The notes under the pieces were generated by a model. That model searched no databases. It saw only the letters and a list, made by a program, of their open reading frames with translations, and was not told the DNA's origin. The position numbers were made by a program, and so were the translations under genes. A stretch of 64,000 bases of DNA from Bdellovibrionales bacterium (GTDB lineage: Bacteria > Bdellovibrionota > UBA1018 > CAIMNF01). The stretch lies in NCBI GenBank assembly GCA_040380025.1, contig JBEIJY010000006.1, positions 1-64,000 on the forward strand, written 5' to 3'. Every line of letters begins with the position of its first letter. Position 1 is the stretch's first letter. Below, piece by piece: positions 49,639 through 64,000 of the stretch.

Positions 49639-52209
49639 TCACTTCACTCCGAGTTTTTCTTTCAAAAAGGGCGCGATCCGGCTCACTTTCGAGCGGGCAA
49701 CCGCCTCGGGCGTTCCCTCGGCGACAATCCGGCCTCCCGCAGTGCCCCCCTCGGGGCCGATGTCGATCAGGTGGTCCGCCGAGCAGATGATGTCGAGGTT
49801 GTGCTCGATCACGAGCACGGAGTTCCCCTGCTCCACCAGGCGATGGAGGATCACGAGGAGTTTCTTGATGTCGTCAAAATGAAGCCCGGTCGAAGGCTCA
49901 TCGAGGATGAACAGGGTTTTCCCGGTCGCACGGCGGGCGAGCTCCTTTGAGAGCTTGATCCGCTGGGCCTCTCCGCCCGAAAGCGTGGTGGCCGATTGGC
50001 CCAGCTTCAGGTACCCGAGTCCCACATCGCTCAAGACCGTGAGCTTGCTCCGGATCTGCGGGACCGGCTCGAAGAACGCAATCGCTTCATCGACCGACAT
50101 CGCGAGCACCTCGGCGATGCTCTTCCCCTTGTAGCGCACCTGAAGCGTGTCGGCGCGATAACGTGCGCCCTTGCAGGTCTCGCAGGTCACATAGGCGTCG
50201 GCAAGAAAGCTCATCGAGATTTTCCGCACGCCGTCGCCCTCGCAGTCGTCGCACCGCCCGCCCTTCACGTTGAACGAAAACCGGCCGGGCTTGAACCCGC
50301 GAAGGCGCGAATCCGGAAGACTCGAAAAAAGAGCACGAATTGGCCCGAAAATCCCAGTGTACGTGGCGGGATTCGAGCGCGGGGTTCGTCCGATCGGGGT
50401 CTGGTCGATCTGGATCACCTTGTCGAGTTCTTTCAGGCCGGATGAAACCTTCGCGGTCATCTCGGGGATTTTGGACTTGTAAAAATGATGAAGGAGCAGC
50501 GGGTAAAGCGTATCGATCACAAGAGAACTCTTGCCGCTCCCCGAGACGCCGGTCACGCAGGTGAAAACCCCGAGCGGCAGTCGCACCGACAGGTCACGAA
50601 GGTTGTGGATATTCACATGCTCCAGCGCGAGCTCTTTTTGGGTATCCGGCTTGCGCCGCTCTTTCGGCGGAGTCACGAGGAGTTCGCCCGAGAGGTAGCG
50701 GGCGGTGATGCTCTCCTTTGATTTCAACACCGATTCGGGCGAACCGGCCGCGATGATCCGTCCGCCAAGCACTCCCGCTCCCGGGCCCACATCGATCAGG
50801 TGATCGCTCGCGAGCATGGTTTCTTCGTCGTGCTCGACGACGATCACGGTGTTCCCGAGATCCCGGAGTCGCTTCAGGCTTCCGATCAGGAGTTGATTGT
50901 CGCGCGGATGAAGCCCGATCGAAGGCTCATCGAGAATGTAGGTGATTCCCACAAGCGAGCTCCCGAGCTGGGAGGCAAGGCGGATGCGCTGGGATTCCCC
51001 GCCTGAAAGGGTGAAGAGCGGTCGGTCGAGCGAGAGGTAGCCGACCCCCACGCGGGTCAGGAACCCAACGCGAAGAAGCGTCTCGCGGATCAGGCCTCCG
51101 GCGATTTTTTGCTCGCGCTCTGTGAGGGAGATTCCGCCGAGGAATGGCTCGAGATTCTCGATGGGAAGCGCGCACGCTTCCGCGATGTTTTTTCCGGCGA
51201 TCCGAAAGCTCAAGGACTCGCGCGAAAGACGGCTGCCCTTGCAGTCGCGGCAGGTCTCCTGGAACCGATACACGGGTTGTTCCTCGTCCTCGCCCTGATC
51301 CTCTTCTTCCTCGATCGAGTACGACTCGAAACCGATTCCGTCACAGCGTTTGCAGGCGCCGAGCGGGCTGTTGAACGAGAACACCCGGGGCTCGGGCGAC
51401 GGAAGATAAATGTCGCATCGACTGCAGGCGAAGTTCTGCGAGAGCGTGCGTTCGGTGGTTTTCTCGCCCTGGTGGTCGAGGATGGTCAGCAGTCCCTTCG
51501 AGAGCTTGAGGGCCAGCTCCACACTTTCGTGGATGCGGCTCTGGAGCGAGGCATCCTGTCGCTTCAGGATGATCCGGTCGATGACGACCTCGATGGTGTG
51601 CTTGATGTTCTTCCCGAGGGGAATCGGCTCGGAGAGGTCGACGATCTTGCCGTCCACCCGCGCCTTCGCGAACCCCTTTTGCCGGAGCGCTAGCAGCTCA
51701 CGCTGAAACTCCCCCTTTTTTTCGCGTGCGATCGGCGCGAGCAACGAGAGGCGTGCTCCTTCGGGGCGCGTCAGGATCAGATCGACAATCTGCCGGGTCG
51801 AAAGAGATTCGATCGGGGCCGAGCAACCCGGACAAAATGCCTTCGAGACGCGTGAATACAGAACCCGCAGATGATCGTGGATCTCGGTTGTGGTTCCGAC
51901 GGTCGACCGCGGATTGTACGAGGTGGTTTTTTGAAGAATCGCGATCGTGGGCGAAAGCCCCCGGAGCTCATCGACGTCGGGTTTTTCGATCTGCTCGAGG
52001 AACTGTCGCGCATAGGTCGAAAAGGTCTCGACGTACCGGCGTTGCCCCTCGGCATGAATGGTGTCGAACGCGATCGAGGATTTTCCCGATCCCGACGGAC
52101 CCGTGATCACCGTGAAGGATCCGTGAGGAATTCCGACGGTGATGTTCTTCAAGTTATGGACGCGAGCGCCCTTGATGAGGATCTCAGTGTCCGGACCGGA
52201 ATTCTCCAT
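49639..52209 (-). CDS. uvrA: Excinuclease ABC subunit A (short; insertion domain missing)
   Basis: Two Walker A motifs (GPSGSGKSS, GVSGSGKSS), two LSGGE, three zinc sites. Confidence 0.96.
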   Translation of the reverse strand: MENSGPDTEILIKGARVHNLKNITVGIPHGSFTVITGPSGSGKSSIAFDTIHAEGQRRYVETFSTYARQFLEQIEKPDVDELRGLSPTIAILQKTTSYNPRSTVGTTTEIHDHLRVLYSRVSKAFCPGCSAPIESLSTRQIVDLILTRPEGARLSLLAPIAREKKGEFQRELLALRQKGFAKARVDGKIVDLSEPIPLGKNIKHTIEVVIDRIILKRQDASLQSRIHESVELALKLSKGLLTILDHQGEKTTERTLSQNFACSRCDIYLPSPEPRVFSFNSPLGACKRCDGIGFESYSIEEEEDQGEDEEQPVYRFQETCRDCKGSRLSRESLSFRIAGKNIAEACALPIENLEPFLGGISLTEREQKIAGGLIRETLLRVGFLTRVGVGYLSLDRPLFTLSGGESQRIRLASQLGSSLVGITYILDEPSIGLHPRDNQLLIGSLKRLRDLGNTVIVVEHDEETMLASDHLIDVGPGAGVLGGRIIAAGSPESVLKSKESITARYLSGELLVTPPKERRKPDTQKELALEHVNIHNLRDLSVRLPLGVFTCVTGVSGSGKSSLVIDTLYPLLLHHFYKSKIPEMTAKVSSGLKELDKVIQIDQTPIGRTPRSNPATYTGIFGPIRALFSSLPDSRLRGFKPGRFSFNVKGGRCDDCEGDGVRKISMSFLADAYVTCETCKGARYRADTLQVRYKGKSIAEVLAMSVDEAIAFFEPVPQIRSKLTVLSDVGLGYLKLGQSATTLSGGEAQRIKLSKELARRATGKTLFILDEPSTGLHFDDIKKLLVILHRLVEQGNSVLVIEHNLDIICSADHLIDIGPEGGTAGGRIVAEGTPEAVARSKVSRIAPFLKEKLGVK

Positions 52210-53575
52210 GACCAAGCTTTCTTGCCGCCTGAGCCAGGGCGGAATCGAATTTCGAGCGAATTCGTTCTAACATTTCGGCAGTTTGCGCCTCAAAGCGCAT
52301 GACAATGACCGGTTGGGTGTTCGAGGCACGGATGAGCCCCCAGTGATCGGGATAATCCACACGAAGTCCGTCGATCGTGGTGAGCTTCGCCTTCGGGTCG
52401 GCCAGAAGCTTCGCCGCTTCTTCGATCAGCGCGAACTTCTTGTCCTCCTCGCAGTCGATGCGGATCTCGGGAGTATTCACCACCGGAGGAAGATCCGCGA
52501 TGAGAGTAGCCAGCGCCTCACCGCGCGAGACGATCTCGTACAAGCGGGCGGAGGAATAAATCGCATCGTCGAATCCGAACCAGCGATCGGCGAAAAAGAT
52601 GTGCCCGGACATCTCTCCGGCGAGCTTCGCTCCCGTTTCTTTCATTTTCGACTTGATCAGCGAGTGGCCTGTTTTCCACATGATGCCATTCCCGCCGTTT
52701 TTCTCGATGTCCTGGAACAAGCGCAGGCTCGATTTCACCTCAGAGATCACGGTGGCTCCCGGGTGGTGCTTCAGCACCTCGCGCGAAAAGATCACCATCA
52801 GTTCATCGCCGTAGATGACTCTTCCTGCCGAATCGACCGCACCGATCCGGTCGGAGTCGCCATCATAGCCAACCCCGAAGTCGGCCCCGTGGGCCCGCAC
52901 CTGCTCGATCAGGGTCTTCAGGTTCGCAGGAACGGTCGGATCGGGATGATGATTCGGGAATCTTCCGTCGAGCTCGCAGTACAAGGGGATCACCTCGGCG
53001 CCGATTTGGTGAAAAAGCTCGGGAGCCACATTCGATGCGGTTCCATTCCCCGCATCGAGCACGACTTTGAGTTTACGCGCTGGCTTGATCTGGCCGCTCA
53101 CGTGGCGGATGTACTCGGGAATGATCGAGCGTTGTTCGAGCGATCCTTCGGGCCGCGGGGAGAACCGGCCTTCGAGCATCACGCGCTTCAGTTCCTGGAT
53201 CTGTTCCCCGTGGAGCGTGTCTTTGCCGATTCCGATTTTGAACCCGTTGTATTCGGCGGGGTTGTGCGAACCCGTGATCATGATTGCACCATCGAGTCCG
53301 TAATGATGAACCGAGAAATAAGTGAGCGGAGTCGGGCAGACGCCGATCTCGATCACATCGACGCCACCTTTGCGGAGTCCCGAGATCAGGGCCTCCGAAT
53401 ACTCATCGCTTGTGAGGCGGCAATCGCGGCCGACCGAAACGCGAAGGCGTGCCGCTCCGGTGCGGCGGTACGCCCATTCGGCATAGGTCAGGCCCAGGTT
53501 TTTTGCAAACTCCGCAGTCAGGTCCTTGCCTGCGATTCCGCGGATGTCATACTCGCGAAAAATGGATGGATTCAT
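52184..53575 (-). CDS. Phosphomannomutase/phosphoglucomutase (AlgC-like)
   Basis: IFREYDIRG, TGSHNP, DGDSDR, GEMSGH, RASNT; true start 53575. Confidence 0.95.
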   Translation of the reverse strand: MNPSIFREYDIRGIAGKDLTAEFAKNLGLTYAEWAYRRTGAARLRVSVGRDCRLTSDEYSEALISGLRKGGVDVIEIGVCPTPLTYFSVHHYGLDGAIMITGSHNPAEYNGFKIGIGKDTLHGEQIQELKRVMLEGRFSPRPEGSLEQRSIIPEYIRHVSGQIKPARKLKVVLDAGNGTASNVAPELFHQIGAEVIPLYCELDGRFPNHHPDPTVPANLKTLIEQVRAHGADFGVGYDGDSDRIGAVDSAGRVIYGDELMVIFSREVLKHHPGATVISEVKSSLRLFQDIEKNGGNGIMWKTGHSLIKSKMKETGAKLAGEMSGHIFFADRWFGFDDAIYSSARLYEIVSRGEALATLIADLPPVVNTPEIRIDCEEDKKFALIEEAAKLLADPKAKLTTIDGLRVDYPDHWGLIRASNTQPVIVMRFEAQTAEMLERIRSKFDSALAQAARKLGHGEFRSGH

Positions 53576-54516
53576 GAGGTTCTCCTTTTTTTGATGAGTC
53601 CGAGCGCGTTCCGGATCGCATAGCGCATGCTTCCGGAGTCGGCCTTGTTTTTTCCTGCGATGTCGAACGCCGTTCCGTGGTCGACCGAGGTCCGCACGAA
53701 CGGGAGTCCGAGAGTCATGTTCATGCTCTCGCTGAAGTTGCTGAGCTTCACGGGAATGAGCCCTTGATCGTGATAGAGCGCGAGAATCAGATGGTGCCGG
53801 GATTTCGCAGGTCGTGCCGCTTCGATCGCAAAAAACGAGTCGGCCGGATGCGGCCCGGTAAGCGTGACCGCCGGAAGCGTCTTTCCGATCGCCTGCAATG
53901 CCGGCACGATCACCTTCGACTCCTCTTTGCCGAGGATCCCGCCCTCCCCCGCATGGGGGTTCAGCGCGAGCACCGCGATCCGAGGATTCTTCACGCCGAG
54001 CATGCCGGTCAGGAAGTCCGAAGAATTGCGGATGGCGACCTCGAGAGACTTGCGATGGATCTTCGCGCTCACCTCGGATAACGGACAATGATTGGTCACC
54101 AGCGCCACGCGGAACAGATCGTTCGCGAGCATCATGGTCACGGGCTTTGCGCGCGAGAGATGGGCCAAAAAATCGGTGTGTCCGTGGAAGGGAAATCCGG
54201 CGCCCTGCAGGCGCTCCTTGCTGATCGGACCGGTCACGAGCACACGCGAGGCGGGTGCGGCGAGCACCATTTGCGTTGCCGTCTCGATGGACCAGCCGGA
54301 CTGGTACCCCGGGCTCGATCGTTCGGGCGGTTCGAAAAAGTCATGATCGATGCCCTTCAGATGCTTTTGGAGTTTCCGGAAGGGAGCGCGCGAACCCACG
54401 ATGAGGGTGTGAACTCCCTGCAACTCGGATCGCAAGGAATCGAGCGCTTTTGCGGTGACCTCAGGGCCGATTCCCTCGGGGTCTCCCGGAGTGATGACGA
54501 GTTCGAAGGGTTTCAT
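53572..54516 (-). CDS. pdxA: 4-hydroxythreonine-4-phosphate dehydrogenase
   Basis: GDPEGIGPE, GHT, NPHAGE, YHDQG, RTSVDHGTAFDIAG. Confidence 0.93.
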   Translation of the reverse strand: MKPFELVITPGDPEGIGPEVTAKALDSLRSELQGVHTLIVGSRAPFRKLQKHLKGIDHDFFEPPERSSPGYQSGWSIETATQMVLAAPASRVLVTGPISKERLQGAGFPFHGHTDFLAHLSRAKPVTMMLANDLFRVALVTNHCPLSEVSAKIHRKSLEVAIRNSSDFLTGMLGVKNPRIAVLALNPHAGEGGILGKEESKVIVPALQAIGKTLPAVTLTGPHPADSFFAIEAARPAKSRHHLILALYHDQGLIPVKLSNFSESMNMTLGLPFVRTSVDHGTAFDIAGKNKADSGSMRYAIRNALGLIKKRRTS

Positions 54517-55472
54517 GGCGAGCGTTGGTTCACTTTCACGTAGTTGAGGGCGCGCTCGCGGTCGAGCCAGAGGCGGACCTGATGGCGGAACTCCCCTTCC
54601 ATGAGGCGGGCGCGGATCGAATCTTTTTCGCGTTCGAAGGCCGAGTCGGTGTCGAACTTGATGTCCCCCACGCGCACGATCAGAAAGGATTTTTTGTCTT
54701 CGATGATTTCGCTCGTTTTTTCGGGCCCGAGCCGGCGGACCTCGGCCTGGATCTCGGGGCTCATCTCGTTGTAAGCAAGGTGGCCGAGATCCCCCCCGAA
54801 CTCCTGGCTCGGATCCTCACTCAGGCGTTTGGCGACCTCTTCGAACGCCTCGCCCTTTTTCAGGGCTTCGAGTGCCTGCCCGGCCTCTTCGCGGGCGGCG
54901 ACGGAGGTCTTATAGTTCGCTTTCGAGATCCGGATCAAAAACAGACGGAACGAACCGCCGAAGGACTTCGAGCCCGAATGGGCGCGATTGTATTCGGCAC
55001 GGAGGTCGTCATCGGAGACTGCGGTTTTGTTCCGGATCTCGCGATCGATCAGGTTCCGCTTCGCGATCGAGATTCGCATCAGTCGAAAGTACTCCTCGAA
55101 CCGGAACCCCTCCCGACCCACGGCGCTCTTCAGCGCTTCGCGATCGATCTTGAGATTGGCCTGGATGGTGTTGATCTCCTGTTCCACCTCGGCATCAGCG
55201 ACCGGGAATTTGTCGATCACCAGAGCCTCGTCGATCAGATAGTTCAGCACGTCTTCATTGGTGGGATTTGCTTTTCGTCCGATGGGCTCGTTCACAAAAA
55301 GCGGGTCGATCTTGGCACGAAGGGGAATGAGTGAGCGGAATCGTTCGAAGTCCGAGAAGAAAATAGGGCGCTTGTTCACGATCGCCTCGACCCGATCCAC
55401 AAGGACGGCATCGACGGAGATCGCAAAGGCGCCCGAAAAGAGGGTCAGAAGCAACGCGGCTCGTAGGTTCAT
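54513..55472 (-). CDS. surA: SurA-like chaperone with parvulin PPIase domain
   Basis: Signal peptide, VDRVEAIVN, AKRLSEDPS..GGDLG; upstream of pdxA. Confidence 0.8.
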   Translation of the reverse strand: MNLRAALLLTLFSGAFAISVDAVLVDRVEAIVNKRPIFFSDFERFRSLIPLRAKIDPLFVNEPIGRKANPTNEDVLNYLIDEALVIDKFPVADAEVEQEINTIQANLKIDREALKSAVGREGFRFEEYFRLMRISIAKRNLIDREIRNKTAVSDDDLRAEYNRAHSGSKSFGGSFRLFLIRISKANYKTSVAAREEAGQALEALKKGEAFEEVAKRLSEDPSQEFGGDLGHLAYNEMSPEIQAEVRRLGPEKTSEIIEDKKSFLIVRVGDIKFDTDSAFEREKDSIRARLMEGEFRHQVRLWLDRERALNYVKVNQRSP

Positions 55473-55532
55473 CACTCCGAAGATTTCTCACAAATCCGGA
55501 GTGATTCCAACGGGAAACGCGCCGGTGTCGGC

Positions 55533-56354
55533 CTAATCGCGAAGGGCTTTCTCGTTGATCGAAACCCGCGCCTTTTCACGCAAACCATTGAGCACGCGAT
55601 TCACCAGCTCCTGGCGGCGGTCGTCGAGAATGAGTGCCTTCACCTTATTGCGGTCTGTATGAATCCATTCCTGCTTCCCGGTCAGGCGAATCAGGTGTAG
55701 GCCGAACGGGGTCTTCACCGGCCCTGCGATGTCGCCGATCTTTCCGATCTTGAGAAGCGCCCTGTAATAAGTCGGATCCAAGCGATCTTTCATGCGGTAA
55801 TCGAGGTCCCCCCCGAGGGCCGCACTCGGGTCTTCCGAGAAGCGCTGGGCCGCCTCGGCGAACGAATATTTGCCCGCCTTGATTTCGCCCAAAATCTCGG
55901 TCAGGCGCTTGGAAGCGCCGGCTTCTTCTTCGGGCTTGGTGTCGGGAGGAAGGGCGATGAAGATATGGCTCGACCGCACCTCGGGGTTCTTCTGATACCA
56001 GTTCCGGGCCTCAGCCTCGGAGAGGGTCATTTTTTCGAACTCACTCCCGATCTTTTTTTCGATCAGATAGGTGTACAGGGCATTGTTCATGCGCTCGATC
56101 GCGACCGGATCCTGATCGAGCTTGGTTCGCTTCGCCTCCTGGATCGCCACTTCGCGTTTGATGAGATCGTCGAGAACCTGCTTTCGCGAGGGAGGAAGAA
56201 GCGGATTCATTCGGGTCGCCTCGGCGACCTTCGATTTCACCTCTTCGATGGTGATCACCTTCTCGTTCACGCGGGCGACTTCCACGCCTGCGTTCGCGGA
56301 ATTCAGAAACAACGTCACTCCGGCCAGGATCAACTGCAGGAACGGTTTGCTCAT
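55533..56354 (-). CDS. PpiC-type peptidyl-prolyl isomerase
   Basis: SHI, SEDPSAALGGDL, PVKTPFGLHLI. Confidence 0.88.
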   Translation of the reverse strand: MSKPFLQLILAGVTLFLNSANAGVEVARVNEKVITIEEVKSKVAEATRMNPLLPPSRKQVLDDLIKREVAIQEAKRTKLDQDPVAIERMNNALYTYLIEKKIGSEFEKMTLSEAEARNWYQKNPEVRSSHIFIALPPDTKPEEEAGASKRLTEILGEIKAGKYSFAEAAQRFSEDPSAALGGDLDYRMKDRLDPTYYRALLKIGKIGDIAGPVKTPFGLHLIRLTGKQEWIHTDRNKVKALILDDRRQELVNRVLNGLREKARVSINEKALRD

Positions 56355-56363
56355 GAAAAAAGT

Positions 56364-59300
56364 TTAACAGCCCGATCCGGCGTTTTCAAATGCTTTGGGC
56401 GCTATTTTTCGGAGAAGTTTTTCGAGTTCAAAAAAATGACTCTTCAGATCGACGAAGGGAATGTGGAACAGCACGCGCGACTCGGGTGTGAGGCGCACCC
56501 GCGGGTCACGAACCGATTTCGGCCCCGCATGGAGCTTCATCACCTCATCGATTTCGACAGGTGAGGTTTTTCTGACACCCATCGAGGTGAGGGATTCGTT
56601 GACCGAGAGCGACTCGATGCCCGTCTTTCTGAGGAGGTTCTTCAGGCGGATCAGTGAGAAAAGGTTTTCGGTTTCGTGCGGAAGCTCGCCGAAGCGGTCA
56701 AGAAACTCGGCACGGAGTCCGTCGATTCTCGCGTCGGAATCGGCCATGGAAATTTTTCGATAGAGCGAAAGGCGGAGCTTCGGATCGGGAACCAGGTCGG
56801 TGCCGATCGCGCACTCGACCGGGACGCGGATCTCGGGCTCGAAATGCCGTTCTTCGACGTCGATTTTTTTGCCCTTCAGCTCGGCGATCGCCTCTTCGAG
56901 AAGTTCCGTGAAGAGATCCAGCCCGACCGAGGCAATGTGCCCGGATTGTTCGCCGCCGAGCAGGTTCCCGCCCCCGCGAATCTCGAGGTCATGGCTTGCC
57001 ACCTGGAATCCGCTCCCGAGCTCGACGAATCGCTGGAGCACGTCGAGCCGCATTCGTGCCTCGGGGGTCAGAGCGCGTTCTTCTTCGGTCAGAAGATATG
57101 CGAAGGACTTGCGATGGCTCCGGCCCACCCTGCCCCGGATCTGATAGAGCTGCGCGAGACCCAGGCGGTCGGCGCGGTGGATGAGGATCGTGCCCGCGTT
57201 CGGCACGTCGATCCCGGATTCGATGATCGTCGTGCAGACCAGGATGTTCGCGTGTCCTTGGTAGAACTCGATCATTTTCGATTCGATTTCGGCTTCGGAC
57301 ATCTGTCCGTGAGCAACGAGGATGCGCGCATGGGGCACGAGCTTCCGGATTTCTTCGGCCCGGTGGTGGATCGTCTCGACACGGTTGTATAAATAGAACA
57401 CCTGGCCGCCGCGGGAGAGTTCGGTCTCGATCGCGGTCTTGACGAGCTCGGGTGAGTATCCCGATACGAAGGTCTTGATGGGTTGCCGGTTGGTGGGCGG
57501 GGTCTTGATCACGCTGATGTCCTTCAGTCCCGAAATGGCGAGATTCAGGGTTCGCGGGATCGGCGTCGCCGTCAGGGTCAGGGTGTGGGTATCGGCCTGG
57601 AGAGCTTTGATTTTTTCTTTGTGTTCGACGCCAAAACGATGCTCTTCGTCGATGATCAGGAGCCCGAGGCGGTTCCAGCCCACATCCTTCGAAAGAAGCC
57701 GGTGGGTACCGATCAGAATGTCGACCTTGCCGTCGCGCAGATCGCGAAGGGTCTCGGATTGCATCTTCCGGGTCTTGAACCGCGAAATCGATTCGATCCG
57801 GATCGGGAAATCCCGCATGCGCCGGCGGAAGGTCTGTTCGTGCTGGAATGCGAGGAGTGTGGTGGGAACGAGCACGGCCACCTGATACCCGCTTTGCACG
57901 GCCTGGAAGGCGGCACGCATCGCGACCTCGGTTTTTCCGAAGCCCACATCGCCGCATACGAGGCGGTCAAGGAGCTTTCCGGTTTCGAGATCCGAAAGGA
58001 CATCCTGGGTGGCGCGCAACTGGCCCTCGGTCTCGGTGAATTCGAACCGGTCGCAGAACTCGAAGTACGAGTCGCTCCGCGTGTCGAATTGCGGCCCCTT
58101 CAGGAGGGCCCGTTTCGCGTGCAGTTCGATCAGATTGATGGCGAGCTTCTTGGCCGAATCCCTCGCCCGCTGCTTCGCTTTTTCGAAGAGTCCTGATCCA
58201 AGCTTATCGAGCGGCGCCCCCTGGCCTGGGTTGATGTAGCGCTGGATCGTGTTCAGCCGGTATACCGGCAGATAAAGCTTGTCCCCGCCTGAGTACTCGA
58301 TCAGCAGGTACTCGCCCGAACCGCTATTTCCCGAGGGGAGAGCCTTGAGTCCCGTATAGCGGCCCACTCCATGAAGGGCGTGGACGATCAGGTCTCCCGG
58401 AGACAGGTCGGAAGCGTTCTGAAACACCGCGGTCTCGTCCGGTTCGAACTTCGGGTGAAGCGGCGTGGATGCTTTGGAGGCACCGCCGAACACACCGAAG
58501 AACAGACTCTCCGAGAGAATCATGTGCTTGTGGGTCAAGAACTCGATCGACTCGCCGGGATCGCCCGAAAGAAGCCGGAGGCCGGGAGCCCGCGCGAGGT
58601 CCTTCAGAAGAAACCGCAATCGATCCTGATGGCTCGTTCCCCGGGTACCGATCCAGATCTCAAACCCGTCGTCGAGCCATTCCCGAATCTCTTTTTCGCC
58701 GATCCGTCGGTTCTCGATCCGTTCGAAGGCGACCGGCACCCGGGCAGAGGCAGATTCGGTTGCCGAGCGCACCACGGCCGTCGCCCGTTTGAGCGCCCGA
58801 TCAAGGCAGTCCTCTAGGCCGGGATACAGGGTTTCGGGATCCGGGGTGATCCAGTAGGGATTCGGGTATCGCTCGAGATCGGTCTTGATCTCGATTTTTT
58901 TGTCGGCAAGCGCGATCTTTTGCTGTTCGGGCTCGAAGAACACCATCCGGACGGTTTCGGGCAGGTGGTGCTCGAGTCTTCCGTCCGAGTCGTACACGAA
59001 GGGAAACCAGGTGCGGTAATGCTCCGGAAGAAATCCGCTCCGGATGGTCTCAAAAATCGGATCGCGGATTTTGCGCGGAATTTGCCGGTGGTCGCAGTAT
59101 TCCTTGATGCGTTCGAGGGTTTCTTCGAGGCGATCCCACGGAAACAGCACCTCTTCGGCCGGCCGGATTCGGAGGTGCCCCGCACTCAGTCCGAATTTGT
59201 CCGTCAGTTGCGTGCCCGGATGAAACGTCCGGATGGTCTCGGGAACCGTATCGAAAAAACTGATCCGGAACGGACGCTCGTGGGCGGGGTCGAAGAGATC

Positions 59301-59810
59301 CAGGATCTCGCCCCGGAGTGCGAATTGTCCGGGCTCCTCGACCAGGTCGGTTTGCTGGTAGCCGGAAGCACGGAGCGTGCGGCGGAGATCCTCGCGGGAC
59401 CCGGCATCGCGGTCGACTTCGAGGAGGATTCCTCGCCTGGTATACGCGTCCGGAGGGATGGTTGGCTGGCACCACGATTCGGTCGTTGCGAGGAGGATTA
59501 CCGAAGCGTTCCGTTCCGCGAGAAGAGAGAGCGCGTGAAGGCGGTCGATTCGCTGGGTGATCGAGGAGGAGATCGGTGAGTACGGGGACTGCTCCCAGGC
59601 GACCCAGCGGGCAAGCTCGATTCGGGTGCCCCGGGCGGCGTGTTCGGCCTCGATCAGGCTTTCGAGCGCCGAAGAAATGTTCTCCATCATTCCGGACTCC
59701 GGAAAGCAAAGCATTTGAATCGAACCCGGACGGGTGGATGCGTGCTTCAGGACCTCGAACGCTTGGGCAAGCGGAGAGGAGAATTTTATCTCTTCGGGGC
59801 CGGGGGCCAT
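56364..59810 (-). CDS. mfd: Transcription-repair coupling factor
   Basis: CarD-like HALHGVGRY, GDVGFGKTE, DEEH, TATPIPR, QIRGRVGR, DLEIRGGG. Confidence 0.97.
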   Translation of the reverse strand: MAPGPEEIKFSSPLAQAFEVLKHASTRPGSIQMLCFPESGMMENISSALESLIEAEHAARGTRIELARWVAWEQSPYSPISSSITQRIDRLHALSLLAERNASVILLATTESWCQPTIPPDAYTRRGILLEVDRDAGSREDLRRTLRASGYQQTDLVEEPGQFALRGEILDLFDPAHERPFRISFFDTVPETIRTFHPGTQLTDKFGLSAGHLRIRPAEEVLFPWDRLEETLERIKEYCDHRQIPRKIRDPIFETIRSGFLPEHYRTWFPFVYDSDGRLEHHLPETVRMVFFEPEQQKIALADKKIEIKTDLERYPNPYWITPDPETLYPGLEDCLDRALKRATAVVRSATESASARVPVAFERIENRRIGEKEIREWLDDGFEIWIGTRGTSHQDRLRFLLKDLARAPGLRLLSGDPGESIEFLTHKHMILSESLFFGVFGGASKASTPLHPKFEPDETAVFQNASDLSPGDLIVHALHGVGRYTGLKALPSGNSGSGEYLLIEYSGGDKLYLPVYRLNTIQRYINPGQGAPLDKLGSGLFEKAKQRARDSAKKLAINLIELHAKRALLKGPQFDTRSDSYFEFCDRFEFTETEGQLRATQDVLSDLETGKLLDRLVCGDVGFGKTEVAMRAAFQAVQSGYQVAVLVPTTLLAFQHEQTFRRRMRDFPIRIESISRFKTRKMQSETLRDLRDGKVDILIGTHRLLSKDVGWNRLGLLIIDEEHRFGVEHKEKIKALQADTHTLTLTATPIPRTLNLAISGLKDISVIKTPPTNRQPIKTFVSGYSPELVKTAIETELSRGGQVFYLYNRVETIHHRAEEIRKLVPHARILVAHGQMSEAEIESKMIEFYQGHANILVCTTIIESGIDVPNAGTILIHRADRLGLAQLYQIRGRVGRSHRKSFAYLLTEEERALTPEARMRLDVLQRFVELGSGFQVASHDLEIRGGGNLLGGEQSGHIASVGLDLFTELLEEAIAELKGKKIDVEERHFEPEIRVPVECAIGTDLVPDPKLRLSLYRKISMADSDARIDGLRAEFLDRFGELPHETENLFSLIRLKNLLRKTGIESLSVNESLTSMGVRKTSPVEIDEVMKLHAGPKSVRDPRVRLTPESRVLFHIPFVDLKSHFFELEKLLRKIAPKAFENAGSGC

Positions 59811-59848
59811 TGACTCACCCTTTCTTTATCAAGTACCTTCTGCAACAG

Positions 59849-60073
59849 ATGGATCGGAAACGAATTTTGCCTTTTGAGCTCAAAACAACCCAGTTCACCC
59901 AAGCGGTGAATAATCTGTGGGTTGCCTTGCTCGTGGTGCTCCCCGTGTTTGTGGGGGAGCGGGTCCGGTCCTTGCCGTATTTAATCGCGATTCTTCCGAT
60001 GATGATAGTGTTTTTGTCATTCTTTCTGACCACACGGAACTCAATCAGGAAGGATGAGAATGACGGGATTTAG
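59849..60073 (+). CDS. Small two-TM protein in the nuoA position
   Basis: ATG 59849, hydrophobic, overlaps the next gene; identity inferred from position only. Confidence 0.45.
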   Translation: MDRKRILPFELKTTQFTQAVNNLWVALLVVLPVFVGERVRSLPYLIAILPMMIVFLSFFLTTRNSIRKDENDGI

Positions 60074-60440
60074 ACCGGCCCTGAAATACGTTCGCGTGGG
60101 AGTTTCTTGCTGCGGGGATGACTGGATCCAGACCGAGTCGAGTCGCTATGATCTCGAGCGGCTCGGATGTGTTCCCGCCATTCGCCCGGAAGAAGCGAAT
60201 TTGCTCGTGATTCAGGGATTCATGAATGGAATGCTCCGGGAAGAGGCCGAGCGCTTTTATCGCGAGATGCCCGAGCCCCGATTTGTCATGGCGCTCGGAA
60301 CCTGCGCCTGCGGTGGCGGTTTGTTTCCGGCCGAAGGATCCGGAGCAGAGATTCCGGTCGACGTGTATGTGACAGGTTGTCCGCCCCGACCGGAAGCGAT
60401 CATGAATGGCGTGATCTCTCTTCGGGAGGTACGCAAGTGA
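60054..60440 (+). CDS. NuoB-like Fe-S subunit (short)
   Basis: SCC, RYDLERLG, MPEPRFVMALGTCACGGG, VDVYVTGCPPRPEA. Confidence 0.88.
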   Translation: MRMTGFRPALKYVRVGVSCCGDDWIQTESSRYDLERLGCVPAIRPEEANLLVIQGFMNGMLREEAERFYREMPEPRFVMALGTCACGGGLFPAEGSGAEIPVDVYVTGCPPRPEAIMNGVISLREVRK

Positions 60441-61450
60441 TTCAAGAAACGCTCGAAATGGGACCCATCCACCCGTGGTTGCCCGGACCGATGAAGGTTC
60501 GGTTGGGTATGATCGGAGATCGGATCGCGAGCATCGAGACCGGGTTCGGGTTCGCCGCACGCGAGATCGAGAAGCGGGTTTGCGGGCGCACTCTGGAGAT
60601 GGCCCCCTTTCATTCCGGCCGGATCGAGCCGGAGAGCGCTTTTTTGCTCGATCGCTTGTTCGGTGAGGCGGCCGAACGGATTCTCGGAGTTCAAGTGCCC
60701 GCCCGGGCGGCTTGGATCCGCGACATTTGCTTCGAGTTGAGCGAGTTCGGAGCGCAGCTGAAGTTTCTTGCCCGCATGGCATCGCGAATGGGTCTGGGTG
60801 TTTTGTATCATTCCATCCTGAAGCAGCGGGAGTCCCTTTTGGACCTGGTCGAGCTTTTGACCGGTTCTCGGTACGGATACAATTACATCCGTGCCGGAGG
60901 CGCACGCTATGATCTCACCGATGGGTTTCAGGAGCGCCTGGACGCGTGGATGAGAGGATTTCTGGCGGATCATGACCAGATCTACGAGCTTTTTTGCTGG
61001 ACTCATCCGTTTCAGAACAGGCTGAAGTCGATGGGGTTGGTGGTCGACTCGGGTGATTTCGGGTATGTGAGTGAGGCCGCGGCCGAGAACACCCGATTCG
61101 GTCGGGTGAGCCATGTGGAATCCCGTCTTCTGCATGCCCTCGGATCATGCAAAGAGATCTGCACTGAACTCAGGATGCTTCTCGACTCGCCCGTGAAGGG
61201 CGCGTTCTTCGAGCGGGTCCCGGATGCTCCGGCCGCCGGCCGGGCTCGTGCCGAGATCGACACGATTCGCGGCTCGTGGTCGTTCGATCTCGAGCTCGAT
61301 CAGAAGCAAAGAGTCGGCGCCCTGGCGGTCACCACTCCTTCGGATCGCATCCGGAACGCCATTTTGCCCGCGCTTGAGGGTGAGTCGATCGAGGATCTGC
61401 CGCTGATCCTCGAGAGCCTTTCCCTTTCGATTCCGGAGATCGACCGATGA
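60437..61450 (+). CDS. NuoD-like subunit (degenerate, ~337 aa)
   Basis: MGPIHP, EIEK, VPARAAWIR, TGSR..NYIRAGG..DL, C-terminal EIDR; GTGA overlap with the nuoB-like stop. Confidence 0.85.
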   Translation: MIQETLEMGPIHPWLPGPMKVRLGMIGDRIASIETGFGFAAREIEKRVCGRTLEMAPFHSGRIEPESAFLLDRLFGEAAERILGVQVPARAAWIRDICFELSEFGAQLKFLARMASRMGLGVLYHSILKQRESLLDLVELLTGSRYGYNYIRAGGARYDLTDGFQERLDAWMRGFLADHDQIYELFCWTHPFQNRLKSMGLVVDSGDFGYVSEAAAENTRFGRVSHVESRLLHALGSCKEICTELRMLLDSPVKGAFFERVPDAPAAGRARAEIDTIRGSWSFDLELDQKQRVGALAVTTPSDRIRNAILPALEGESIEDLPLILESLSLSIPEIDR

Positions 61451-62232
61451 TGGAGTGGGTTCTGTCGGCCATTTCGATTTTTCCCTTGTCGTTTTTGATG
61501 TTCGCGCTGAGCGAGCGGATGATCGCTCGCCATGAGTCGCGGGTCGGAAAACACATCGGGATCGCCGGCTATGTCTGGCAAACCTGGATCGACACCCGGG
61601 TCGATCTGACAAGGCTTGAGGGGCGGATTTGGGCGTTGTTTTTGTTCCAGTTGTCGATCGTGTTCCTTTACGGGATCGATGCCGAATATCTGGTGTTTCC
61701 GTATCTTGCGACGAACGGATTTCTTCTGGCGATGCTTTCGCCATCCCACGGTGAAGTCCTGAAGAAAATCACGTTCGATCGCGAGCAGGTGGCCTTTTCT
61801 GCCGCAAGCGCTATGGCGGCCCTGTGTCTGCTCGGGGCGTTCACGCTTTCAGGAACCGCGAACCTGAGAGCGATCGAGTTTCATTTCGGGCATCTTTTTT
61901 TTGTGATCCCCTTCCAGCTCGCCGGAATGATCTTGTTCGGAGAACATCCCTTCGCGGGGTTTCTCGAAAAGCGCACTTGGATCGAATCCGCGCGGTTTTA
62001 CGCATGGAGCATGGTGACCGCTCGGGTATTCCTCGGGGGCGGCTCGGTTTTTTTTGATTTTCATCTGAAGGCGGCCGTCCTGTATCTCGCCTTTCGTCTG
62101 CTCGGGGCGTATTTTCCGGCATTCCGCCAGAAGGATTTTCTCAGAATCGTGGTTCTGTACGGGTTTCCGCTGACGGGAATTCTCTGGTTGGTGGTCATGA
62201 TGGTGAACGCCTGGTTCAACGGAGGGGTTTAG
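61447..62232 (+). CDS. NuoH-like membrane subunit (degenerate)
   Basis: ERMIARHESRVG resembles NuoH ERKxxAxxQxRxG; polytopic; ATGA overlap. Confidence 0.7.
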   Translation: MMEWVLSAISIFPLSFLMFALSERMIARHESRVGKHIGIAGYVWQTWIDTRVDLTRLEGRIWALFLFQLSIVFLYGIDAEYLVFPYLATNGFLLAMLSPSHGEVLKKITFDREQVAFSAASAMAALCLLGAFTLSGTANLRAIEFHFGHLFFVIPFQLAGMILFGEHPFAGFLEKRTWIESARFYAWSMVTARVFLGGGSVFFDFHLKAAVLYLAFRLLGAYFPAFRQKDFLRIVVLYGFPLTGILWLVVMMVNAWFNGGV

Positions 62233-62236
62233 AGTG

Positions 62237-62626
62237 ATGAAACGCGTGATCGGGCATTTTTTGAATCACGATGGGGCCAGAAAGGTAGACACCGAGTTTT
62301 ACCCCGATCCGGTTTCTTCGCGGAGCAAGGATGATTTTCCGGCCCGGGCGCGGGGTCTGGTCTTCAACGAGATCGAAAAATGCACCGCCTGTGGCGACTG
62401 CCAGAAAGTCTGTCCCACCGCTTGCATCACGGTTGAGTCCGTGGAGCGGGAGCGGAACAACCGTCCTTGGGTGTCGAAGTTCGACATTGATTTCTCGAAC
62501 TGTGTTTTTTGCGGATTTTGCGTCGAAGTGTGCGAGCCGAATTCGTTGGTGCAGACCAAGGAAGTCCAGGCGGCCGTGTTCGATGCCCGGGACCTGATCA
62601 CGGATTTCGGAAGGGGGCCCCTGTGA
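62237..62626 (+). CDS. NuoI-like 2x[4Fe-4S] subunit
   Basis: YP...RARG, CTACGDCQKVCP, FDIDFSNCVFCGFCVEVC. Confidence 0.88.
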   Translation: MKRVIGHFLNHDGARKVDTEFYPDPVSSRSKDDFPARARGLVFNEIEKCTACGDCQKVCPTACITVESVERERNNRPWVSKFDIDFSNCVFCGFCVEVCEPNSLVQTKEVQAAVFDARDLITDFGRGPL

Positions 62627-62976
62627 CCGCTGTCTTCGATTTGTTGCTTCTGGCGGGAGTCTCGGTTTGTTTCTCGATCCGGAATCTGTATCAAGGTATG
62701 GTGATTTTCTCGCTCGGGCTGGTGTTCCTGTTTCAGGCCCGGCGATCCCGTCTCCTGACCGGATGGTCTCCCGCGCCCCTGCCTCTCGGCCGGAGAATCC
62801 GGGCGGCCGTGTGCGCGGTCCTGCTCGCAGGAGGGGCTGCCCCCCTTTTGACCGAATCGGTAGTGCCCGGGGTGGATGCGCCGACGGAGGATTTGCTGTT
62901 TCCGGTCGTGGTATCGGTGATCCTGTTGTCCGGTATGCTTTTGCTCGGACTCGGGGTGGAGAGGCGGAAACGATGA
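62623..62976 (+). CDS. Membrane protein in the nuoJ position
   Basis: GTGA overlap, ~4 TM, LFP..VSVILL resembles the NuoJ C-terminal helix. Confidence 0.5.
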   Translation: MTAVFDLLLLAGVSVCFSIRNLYQGMVIFSLGLVFLFQARRSRLLTGWSPAPLPLGRRIRAAVCAVLLAGGAAPLLTESVVPGVDAPTEDLLFPVVVSVILLSGMLLLGLGVERRKR

Positions 62977-63212
62977 TCCACGCGGGCTTGGTTTTGTTCG
63001 CATTCTCGCTCTATCTTGCCTTCCTTAGCGAAGATGCGATCGAGTTCGGAGTCGCTCTCTTGCGGGTAGCGTTCACGGTTTTGCTTCTGGTGTTTTTCTC
63101 TTTGGAAGATCAAGCCGTGCTGGAGGGGGCGGTGTTGGCGTATTCCATTCTTGTTTTGGCGTTTCTGGCGTTGATCCGGAATGAAGTTCAGGTGGACCAT
63201 GATCCATCTTGA
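62973..63212 (+). CDS. Three-TM small protein in the nuoK position
   Basis: ATGA overlap, 79 aa, hydrophobic. Confidence 0.5.
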   Translation: MIHAGLVLFAFSLYLAFLSEDAIEFGVALLRVAFTVLLLVFFSLEDQAVLEGAVLAYSILVLAFLALIRNEVQVDHDPS

Positions 63213-64000
63213 GCTCACCCGCTTCGACCAGACGGCGGTTCTTCTGATTCTGGTGAGTGCTCTTGCGCTGATCCGGGAGCGACGGGTTCTTCCGTTCGGA
63301 ATGGTTCTTCTCGGTGCCCTGGTTCAGGGCCAGATTGTGATGATTCTGCTGGCTGCCCTGACCGCTTGGCACCGCCTTGATCGCGCGGCGTCGCGGTGGA
63401 TTCAGCTCAAGGATCTTGCGGGGGTTTTTTTGGTCATGGCCGCGTCGATGTCAGCCGATGCGCTGCAGGCCTTTTTTCTGCTGACCGGCGTGTTCCTGAT
63501 CACCGTGAATCTCGGAGGCGGAATGCTAGGCCCCTTGCCGGCGCTTCTTTTGCTTCGTCAGGCTCACCCGAACCCTGAGTTTTTCGAGGTTGTTCTCGGG
63601 GCGGGCGCCTCGTACTGGTTGGTTGCCGAGATTTTGCGTTTCACGAAGTCCAAGCACGAGGGACAGATTCTGGCCTGGCTCGAGGCGCTTAGTGCGATCG
63701 CGATTCTTGCAAGCTTTCGTGGTGAGGCCGAGAGAATCGCGGATGAGCCCCTCTATCTCGGAATCGTGTGCGCGGGTGTCGCATTGGTTCTTTCTCTGGC
63801 ATTCTGGAAGCGAATTCGAACCCTCGGGTTTTGGTCTTTCCGGATTTCAGGTCGGATTGCTGTAGCGAATGGTTTGCTCGCGGGAAGGGCTTGGGTATCG
63901 GGGGCAGATCGTCTGACTTCGGATCAGCCCTTGGCGCAGGACCCGGATTTTCGCGTTGCGATCGATTCACTGATTTATTGGGTTTTCGGAATTGTCTTGT
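63199..64000 (+). CDS. Polytopic membrane protein in the nuoL position (runs off the window)
   Basis: Manual translation MIHLELTRFDQTAVLLILVSAL..., open to the window end. Confidence 0.55.
   Translation, partial: MIHLELTRFDQTAVLLILVSALALIRERRVLPFGMVLLGALVQGQIVMILLAALTAWHRLDRAASRWIQLKDLAGVFLVMAASMSADALQAFFLLTGVFLITVNLGGGMLGPLPALLLLRQAHPNPEFFEVVLGAGASYWLVAEILRFTKSKHEGQILAWLEALSAIAILASFRGEAERIADEPLYLGIVCAGVALVLSLAFWKRIRTLGFWSFRISGRIAVANGLLAGRAWVSGADRLTSDQPLAQDPDFRVAIDSLIYWVFGIVL

Follow-up and report, generated by a model that had tools for sequence, protein, structure and literature searches.

A degenerate complex I operon lacking quinone-site and proton-pumping residues lies in tandem with the canonical nuo operon in the Bdellovibrionota class UBA1018

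Eleven-subunit relatives of complex I are well described (PMC3144371, PMC4453560, PMC12361115; none of the three names Bdellovibrio in its accessible main text), and the type known as Nuo11 has no N-module and the gene set A-B-(C)-D-H-I-J-K-L-M-N (PMC3144371, PMC11238625). NuoD subunits without the residues His38, Tyr87 and Asp139 of the quinone site (Thermus Nqo4 numbering) and without a NiFe site are also known, from Mbx/Mbs and Ehr complexes and from Nautiliales, Desulfurobacteriales and Sulfolobus; the accessible text of PMC4758237 describes these complexes as ancestral, some with vestigial NiFe cysteines. For Peredibacter and other Bdellovibrionota a second nuo cluster, nuoAHJKLMN, has been reported to be vertically inherited at a fixed chromosomal site (PMC13147790); the available text of that report holds no residue analysis, describes no degenerate or miniaturized form, and does not mention in its main part the class UBA1018, to which FG-1 belongs and for which the name Bdellonasia has been proposed (PMC13200544). 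In this work we analyzed a 64,000-nucleotide stretch of DNA (the window) of a Bdellovibrionales bacterium, positions 1-64000 of contig C6 (JBEIJY010000006.1) of the genome called here G000. At its end begins a second, degenerate complex I operon, which has lost the proton-pumping residues as well as the quinone site, as have its counterparts across the class, and keeps its iron-sulfur (Fe-S) ligands. A clade from which this copy has been deleted is what the present analysis adds; eleven-subunit complexes and NuoD subunits without the triad were already known.

An earlier note, made from the letters of the window, had described eight tightly coupled open reading frames in the order nuoA-B-D-H-I-J-K-L. 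All eight are intact and have no internal stop, and the seven junctions inside the window comprise four ATGA/GTGA overlaps, two 14-nt overlaps and one 4-nt gap; the count of eight holds within the window, but the full operon has ten genes, since NuoM-like and NuoN-like genes follow past position 64000. None of the ten is a nuoC, nuoE, nuoF or nuoG, as the note had said of its eight, and 33 bp downstream of the NuoN-like gene begins a canonical nuoA-N operon, which is complete. The features are as follows (aa, amino acids).

56364..59810, minus strand: mfd, divergent (named from reading of the sequence)
59849..60073, plus strand: NuoA-like, 74 aa (canonical 120), by position; hhalign 0.1%
60060..60440, plus strand: NuoB-like, 126 aa, PF01058
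60437..61450, plus strand: NuoD-like, 337 aa, PF00346, phmmer and AlphaFold2 (AF2) fold
61447..62232, plus strand: NuoH-like, 261 aa, hhalign 98% to the order-level profile; Atlas matches to PF00146 clusters at 0.92
62237..62626, plus strand: NuoI-like, 129 aa, NuoI/Fer4 models
62303..62320, plus strand: family-specific PDPVSS motif with a 5-residue insertion in the NuoI-like protein, from the alignment
62623..62976, plus strand: NuoJ-like, 117 aa, by position; hhalign 17%
62973..63212, plus strand: NuoK-like, 79 aa, by position; hhalign 6%
63199..64053, plus strand, past the window end at 64000: NuoL-like, 284 aa (canonical 618), modest fold match
64043-65035, same contig beyond the window: NuoM-like, 330 aa, hhalign 92%
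65032-66393, same contig beyond the window: NuoN-like, 453 aa, hhalign 96%
66427-79454, same contig: complete canonical nuoA-N operon

The gene names first proposed hold for B, D and I, which models recognize (with scores below the NCBIfam equivalog cut-offs shown), for H by profile and for L by fold, whereas A, J and K take theirs solely from position and size. Pfam gave no match above cut-off for the NuoA-, H-, J-, K- and L-like proteins. The AF2 model of the NuoL-like protein, roughly half an antiporter-like subunit, has a mean predicted local distance difference test score (pLDDT) of 76; nine of its ten top VIA rows are NuoL/M/N/Mrp-type entries (Z 8.0-8.7), and Foldseek found nothing with the same model. 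Together the ten proteins amount to 2190 aa, against 3287 aa for their eleven canonical counterparts.

The residues whose roles at the quinone site are set out in PMC4758237 are replaced in the NuoD-like protein. Four substitutions that had been read by eye are reproduced exactly by a phmmer alignment to Thermus Nqo4 (2fug_4, E 2e-22), which restores neither His38 nor Tyr87: His38 is Pro, Tyr87 is Pro, Asp139 is Arg, and GFAARE stands for GYLHTG; His34 is kept. The fold is kept too (AF2 pLDDT 94.8; template modelling score 0.89-0.91 to Nqo4). One segment of 68 aa, which we take to contact NuoC, is cut to 40 aa in the window genus; shorter versions are also found in three genomes that retain nuoC, so its link to the loss of nuoC is loose. 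Around the site, residues lining the quinone chamber are changed in the NuoB-like protein, and the acidic loop between transmembrane helices (TM) 5 and 6 of the NuoH-like protein, noted earlier as missing, is removed by a deletion of about 15 residues, the N-terminal RVG...D junction motif of this protein and the entrance motifs R32, G34 and D49 being kept.

Residues were counted in E. coli numbering in 15 rows of the window family, 25-26 rows of the rest of the order and up to 7 rows from the second order of the class; length filters had first removed the partial proteins found at locus ends. Neither NuoD His228 (His38) nor Asp329 (Asp139) occurs in any degenerate row (0/15, 0/25 and 0/7 in the three groups), and Tyr277 (Tyr87) is found in 0/15, 4/25 and 7/7; the canonical copies keep all three in 43 of 43 cases. 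The same holds for proton pumping. In the window operon Asp79/Glu81 are absent from the NuoA-like, Glu157 from the NuoH-like, Tyr59 from the NuoJ-like and Glu36/Glu72 from the NuoK-like protein, a set that is absent from every degenerate row scored, and the NuoM-like and NuoN-like proteins have no charged axis; in E. coli the residues of NuoK, NuoA, NuoH and NuoM make up the axis of proton pumping (10.64898/2026.01.27.702182, in its accessible part). For NuoM, Glu144 and Glu407 were each found in 0/13, 1/26 and 0/6 and Lys234 in 0/13, 1/26 and 1/6 rows, and for NuoN, Glu133 and Lys217 in 0/11, 2/24 and 0/7. NuoL Glu144 is apparent in 9/13 rows of the window family, where the alignment is unreliable as the protein is half length, and counting the charges in predicted TM cores, a crude measure, gave no separation of the groups.

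The ligands of the Fe-S clusters are retained. The NuoB-like protein has the four ligands of cluster N2 (CC/C/C at C17, C18, C82 and C107) and the NuoI-like protein both CxxCxxCxxxC motifs, in agreement with the earlier note; in all, the four N2 ligands are present in 46/47 degenerate NuoB-like sequences and the eight NuoI ligands in 46/46 NuoI-like ones. In the exception, G140 (locus L147), three of the four N2 ligands are replaced at separate sites and all eight NuoI cysteines are kept, which points to the NuoI-like protein as the putative working end of the complex. The equivalent of Arg274, the arginine on the N2 side, is found in 13/15 rows of the window family. The NuoI-like protein is also the most conserved degenerate subunit in the window genus, with 15 family-specific conserved positions in 129 aa, compared with 6 in B, 7 in D (no cysteine or histidine among them) and 4 in H, several being inherited from Nuo11. 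Its 5-residue insertion is present in 14/14, 25/25 and 7/7 degenerate sequences of the three groups (46/46) and is a gap in the canonical and Nuo11 rows aligned.

The operon is under purifying selection in close relatives. By a counting method, the ratio of nonsynonymous to synonymous substitution rates (dN/dS) was 0.00-0.07 for each of the ten degenerate genes and 0.01-0.12 for the canonical ones, in the two least saturated of 55 pairs, both of which include G016. Strong NuoD matches in 12 genomes of the same genus have no internal stop. Frameshift or decay is rejected on the intact reading frames, the stop-free relatives and the dN/dS values, and the selective retention that the note had proposed in place of simple decay is borne out by these values and by the ligand counts.

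The arrangement is widespread in this lineage. Among 41 annotated loci (that of G000 and 40 relatives), the degenerate copy lies directly upstream of canonical nuoA in 37, and four end at a contig edge; the NuoI-like profile (E up to 1e-25) detected it in 65/67 genomes of the order and 7/8 of the second order, where 7/7 fetched loci have the same tandem. These searches suggest that degenerate and canonical operons stand in tandem throughout the Bdellovibrionota class UBA1018; a profile search with NuoI-like representatives (38 proteins at E up to 1e-30) and a NuoD homologue search that returned mostly close relatives were not used for the range. Outside the window family the degenerate copy mostly has its full size and all eleven genes. 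Inside it nuoC has been lost and A, H, J, K, L and M have shrunk stepwise: the NuoL-like protein has 414, 384 and 458 aa in three divergent members and about 280 aa in the rest, the median falling from 635 to 281 aa. Loss of nuoC is seen in G027, G036 and G052 too. Miniaturization is specific to the window family.

In four genomes of the window genus (G005, G008, G014 and G015) canonical nuoA directly adjoins mfd, a conserved gene that marks this locus throughout the phylum; the contigs are unbroken there, and each genome has only one NuoB-like gene. They form one clade (Shimodaira-Hasegawa-like approximate likelihood ratio test 100), hence a single clean deletion, and the operon is therefore dispensable there. 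In all four loci (L209, L210, L211 and L212) the place before canonical nuoA is taken by another conserved sequence, ATTATGATACTGTAAA-like.

Several observations bear on the origin of the copy. In families f18, f19 and f27 of other classes there are two tandem membrane-arm clusters A-H-J-K-L-M-N, next to mfd in 3/4 loci, with B-C-D-I and B-C-D-E-F-G-I elsewhere, and both copies keep the quinone triad and the pumping residues. In three full-size test genomes the mean pairwise scores of B, D, H, I, M and N were higher between the degenerate and the Nuo11 copies, the window's own proteins being too diverged to discriminate, and both copies have the 68-aa NuoD segment, which is 63 aa in 14-subunit copies. 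A NuoM tree joined the degenerate rows with four Nuo11 rows at 94/89; the window family was left out of this tree as too short, and the long Nuo11 row of G225 fell elsewhere. Grouping of the degenerate copy with its canonical neighbor was rejected by the approximately unbiased test (p-AU 1.6e-6), and a recent duplication of the neighboring operon is rejected. A Nuo11 enzyme may be the ancestor: the NuoM tree, the pairwise scores, the shared indel and synteny speak for this. Against it speaks a rapidly built tree of B+D+H with E. coli Hyc/Hyf as outgroup, in which the degenerate clade fell outside the two intact groups, possibly by long-branch attraction. A secondary loss from a quinone-reactive ancestor is likely. 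In family f22 of another class (L215-L217) the other paralogue seems to have decayed in parallel; this family has an isolated B-CD-I remnant with no E/F/G and without His38 and Asp139, and an intact Nuo11 elsewhere; the NuoI cluster motifs of the remnant are kept in G068 and G082 (2/3 genomes), and in G225 only the D-like gene was detected.

Set against the described systems, the degenerate complex would be built like Nuo11 and would not function as one. Like Nuo11 it has no N-module and the same gene set, and with the Nuo11 copies of other Bdellovibrionota it shares the mfd locus, the 68-aa NuoD segment and the sister position in the NuoM tree; those copies keep His38, Tyr87, Asp139 and the pumping residues, and the window copy has none of them. 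It also differs from Nuo11 in lacking NuoC (it has ten genes, most other members of the order all eleven), in being cut by about one third overall and in its unique NuoI insertion, and the Nuo11 pumping axis (Glu of TM5, Lys of TM7, Lys/His of TM8 and Lys/Glu of TM12, with the NuoK, NuoA and NuoH residues) is absent. With canonical complex I (E. coli Nuo, Thermus Nqo) it shares the NuoD fold (template modelling score about 0.9), the ligands of N2, N6a and N6b and the gene order; in contrast, NuoC and the N-module subunits NuoE, NuoF and NuoG, the quinone triad and the charges of the E-channel and antiporters are gone. The NuoD subunits lacking the triad that were mentioned above differ in that they are described as ancestral, whereas here the loss is likely secondary. 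In the present copy the pumping residues are gone too. By sequence and by fold it matches complex I subunits best and Mbh and Mbs less well, and NuoM groups with Nuo11, in trees that held no Ehr or Mbx sequence. A group 4 NiFe hydrogenase (Ech, Hyc, Hyf, Mbh) is ruled out by the absence of CxxC from the window NuoD-like protein and from 47/47 degenerate NuoD, and NuoB has the tandem CC of complex I. Fpo is excluded as well, with 93 bits against a cut-off of 600 for the FpoD model and with the replacement of Tyr87, a residue kept in FpoD (PMC4758237). The copy is accordingly unlike canonical Nuo, Fpo and Ech, as had been supposed. In the literature we found no description of a copy that has lost the quinone and the pumping residues together, and subscription papers and supplements (fig. 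S2 of PMC4758237, the tables of PMC13200544) could hold one.

Around the operon, the housekeeping genes on the minus strand at 49639-59810 (mfd, two peptidyl-prolyl isomerase/SurA-like genes, pdxA, a phosphomannomutase-like gene and uvrA, named from reading of the sequences) have the same order in the deletion clade. One further feature lies between mfd and the first gene.

59810..59839, plus strand: promoter-like motif TTGACT-18 nt-TACCTT, 9 nt before the first ATG of the NuoA-like gene

This motif overlaps the called start of mfd, and the pattern recurs upstream in 13/13 operon-bearing loci of the same genus and in 18/40 loci overall; a generic sigma-70 scan of the locus did not report it. 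Its position suggests a putative promoter giving a leaderless transcript. At the other end, the junction between the degenerate NuoN-like gene and canonical nuoA in the window genus has a Shine-Dalgarno-like run and no terminator match in the 33-bp gap, and the two operons are probably co-transcribed there. In many order members (L036-L061) the degenerate N instead ends in a conserved Trp-stop, and a TATAA motif about 7-12 nt ahead of canonical nuoA suggests separate transcription. As to the canonical operon itself, its NuoG is, at about 470 aa, a short protein throughout the class (G000 C6:70875-72287), and in G000 NuoN (C6:77997-79454) has Thr at the Lys247 position and NuoM has Tyr at His248. 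In locus L160 (G300) canonical nuoB, nuoC/D and nuoF are in pieces, probably by assembly errors, and the degenerate copy is intact.

The host genome is 98% complete and has two matches to heme-copper oxidase subunit I and two small [2Fe-2S] ferredoxin-like genes. No MenD or MqnA/D match was found in it, nor did tblastn detect E. coli ubiA, C, D, E, H, I, J or menA, C, D, F; its single UbiA-family gene (C8:77800-78693) lies beside the oxidase genes and is likely heme O synthase. No ubiquinone, classical menaquinone or futalosine pathway can thus be recognized in a genome that has complex I and heme-copper oxidases, which suggests quinone scavenging or some other route. Only one UbiA-family match was found in 12/19 family genomes; no link of the operon to quinone auxotrophy is shown, given that the number of UbiA-family genes varies across the class and the operon is near-universal.

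We tentatively favor, at somewhat less than an even chance, the reading that the operon encodes a non-pumping, quinone-less chassis that presents the ferredoxin-like NuoI-like protein at the membrane to a putative partner. If the genes are expressed and the products assemble and bind their clusters, the loss of the quinone-site and pumping residues would leave a complex without quinone reduction or pumping, the membrane arm would serve as an anchor holding the Fe-S module at the membrane, and the family-specific surface of the NuoI-like protein would make the contact with the partner. We prefer this chassis because the NuoI ligands are absolutely kept, the new NuoI surface is conserved, and one lineage (G140) has dropped N2 and not N6a/N6b. 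The residue losses, the low dN/dS values, the lack of nuoEFG in the operon and of a second set elsewhere in G000, and the f22 remnant with its retained NuoI motifs also speak for it. For the class as a whole, it is possible, though still short of probable, that selection maintains a "ghost" complex I, a pseudoenzyme at the level of the whole complex that would neither oxidize NADH nor reduce quinone nor pump, and that would act as a redox sensor or regulator, with its Fe-S module anchored in the membrane, by way of the new NuoI surface.

A number of points weigh against the chassis. The clusters may be kept solely since B and I need them to fold, and a membrane arm of seven subunits is costly as the anchor of a sensor. 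Tyr87 persists in 11/32 degenerate NuoD outside the window family and NuoN Lys395 in 15/24 order rows; moreover, short-chain quinones still react after mutation of Tyr87 (PMC4758237), so that loss of residues is no proof of lost quinone reduction. The pairs with G000 are saturated, and the selection values come from relatives and not from the branch of the window genome itself. The operon is dispensed with in four genomes, and the search for a partner through them returned none: a 629-aa protein (L202:4242-6128; G000 C3:108241-110127) that has a 4Fe-4S dicluster and 2Fe-2S-like domains, and whose neighboring gene shows a flavin adenine dinucleotide (FAD)-binding-type N-terminus, was rejected as the FAD/Fe-S partner since it is in 19/19 family genomes, including those without the operon, and is not co-lost, and when G000 genes were screened for synteny with G005, over 1.18 Mb of its roughly 2.7 Mb, 26 gaps appeared and no evident co-lost redox gene. 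The sole gap followed up was a CBS-domain candidate, and CBS frames of similar length occur in the deletion genomes G008 and G014. Finally, G000 has no match for a POR-family ferredoxin reductase or flavodoxin. Separately from these candidates, a pantothenate/CoA-type gene block (by reading of the sequences; G000 C27:3413-7786) is missing at the syntenic position in G005.

An uncoupled electron valve, in which a soluble donor or the borrowed canonical NuoEFG would pass electrons through N6a-N6b-N2 to quinone at a loosened site, relieving over-reduction without pumping, is unlikely but deserves weight. The whole wire, the arginine on the N2 side and the NuoH entrance motifs are kept, and the loss of all coupling residues is as expected of an uncoupled enzyme; quinone activity can survive mutation of Tyr87 (PMC4758237), and for a genome that has a single nuoEFG set and the other genes in duplicate, the formation of two isozymes has been suggested (PMC4453560). 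No second nuoEFG was found elsewhere in the G000 genome, only the canonical set, and a predicted complex of the degenerate D and I with canonical NuoG scored 0.00, no answer, which counts neither way. The valve is opposed by the joint alteration of the quinone-site triad, the chamber lining of NuoB and the acidic loop of NuoH, by the deletion of nuoC and 28 NuoD residues in the window genus, and by G140, which without N2 ligands still holds the operon. With no POR-family enzyme and no flavodoxin match found in G000, we see no ordinary ferredoxin circuit of low potential that would supply a Nuo11-type enzyme of the kind proposed for Desulfitobacterium (PMC11238625).

We also consider improbable, without dismissing it, a structural role, in which the products would be an assembly template, stabilizer or membrane-shaping partner of the canonical complex I or supercomplex and would need their clusters for folding only. 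The probable co-transcription, the keeping of gene set and order with every catalytic feature lost, the progressive shrinkage and the failure to find a dedicated redox partner agree with such a role. On the contrary, the near-perfect retention of ligands and the TATAA motif that many order members have before canonical nuoA speak against it, and so do the canonical subunits of the deletion clade, in which no compensatory burst was seen (0-4 changes at otherwise conserved sites per subunit A-L, like the control lineages; NuoM, with only 4 comparison rows, is uninformative).

A wire leading to a new acceptor, a small molecule or a protein, bound in a remodelled NuoD pocket, as in Mbx/Mbs-type complexes, is distinctly improbable: the full NuoD fold is kept and NuoD without His38, Tyr87 and Asp139 is known in Sulfolobus, Nautiliales and Desulfurobacteriales (PMC4758237), but NuoD has only the 7 family-specific sites described, the Tyr87 position varies (Pro, Tyr, Ser, Asn), and CxxC pairs are absent throughout. 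Slow decay of a redundant copy without present function is very improbable, given that faster evolution (mean identity 40-58% against 64-78% for canonical B, D, I and H), repeated loss of nuoC and the deletion of the whole operon in one clade are outweighed by dN/dS values in every gene that already contradict it, by the stop-free NuoD matches and by its presence in nearly all genomes of the order.

If the chassis reading is correct, the complex I chassis would have a second, non-bioenergetic use. Dead paralogues are familiar for single enzymes; here it would be a whole respiratory complex of 10-11 subunits, its quinone site and pumping axis gone, that is kept by strong purifying selection across a bacterial class. 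The class offers a natural series, from the intact Nuo11 through a residue-stripped copy of full size and a miniaturized copy without NuoC to a clean deletion, which separates the parts needed for architecture from those needed for catalysis and yields a minimal core, B-D-H-I, on which coupling could be studied structurally; with the natural deletion clade, a partner would be findable by co-loss across whole genomes.

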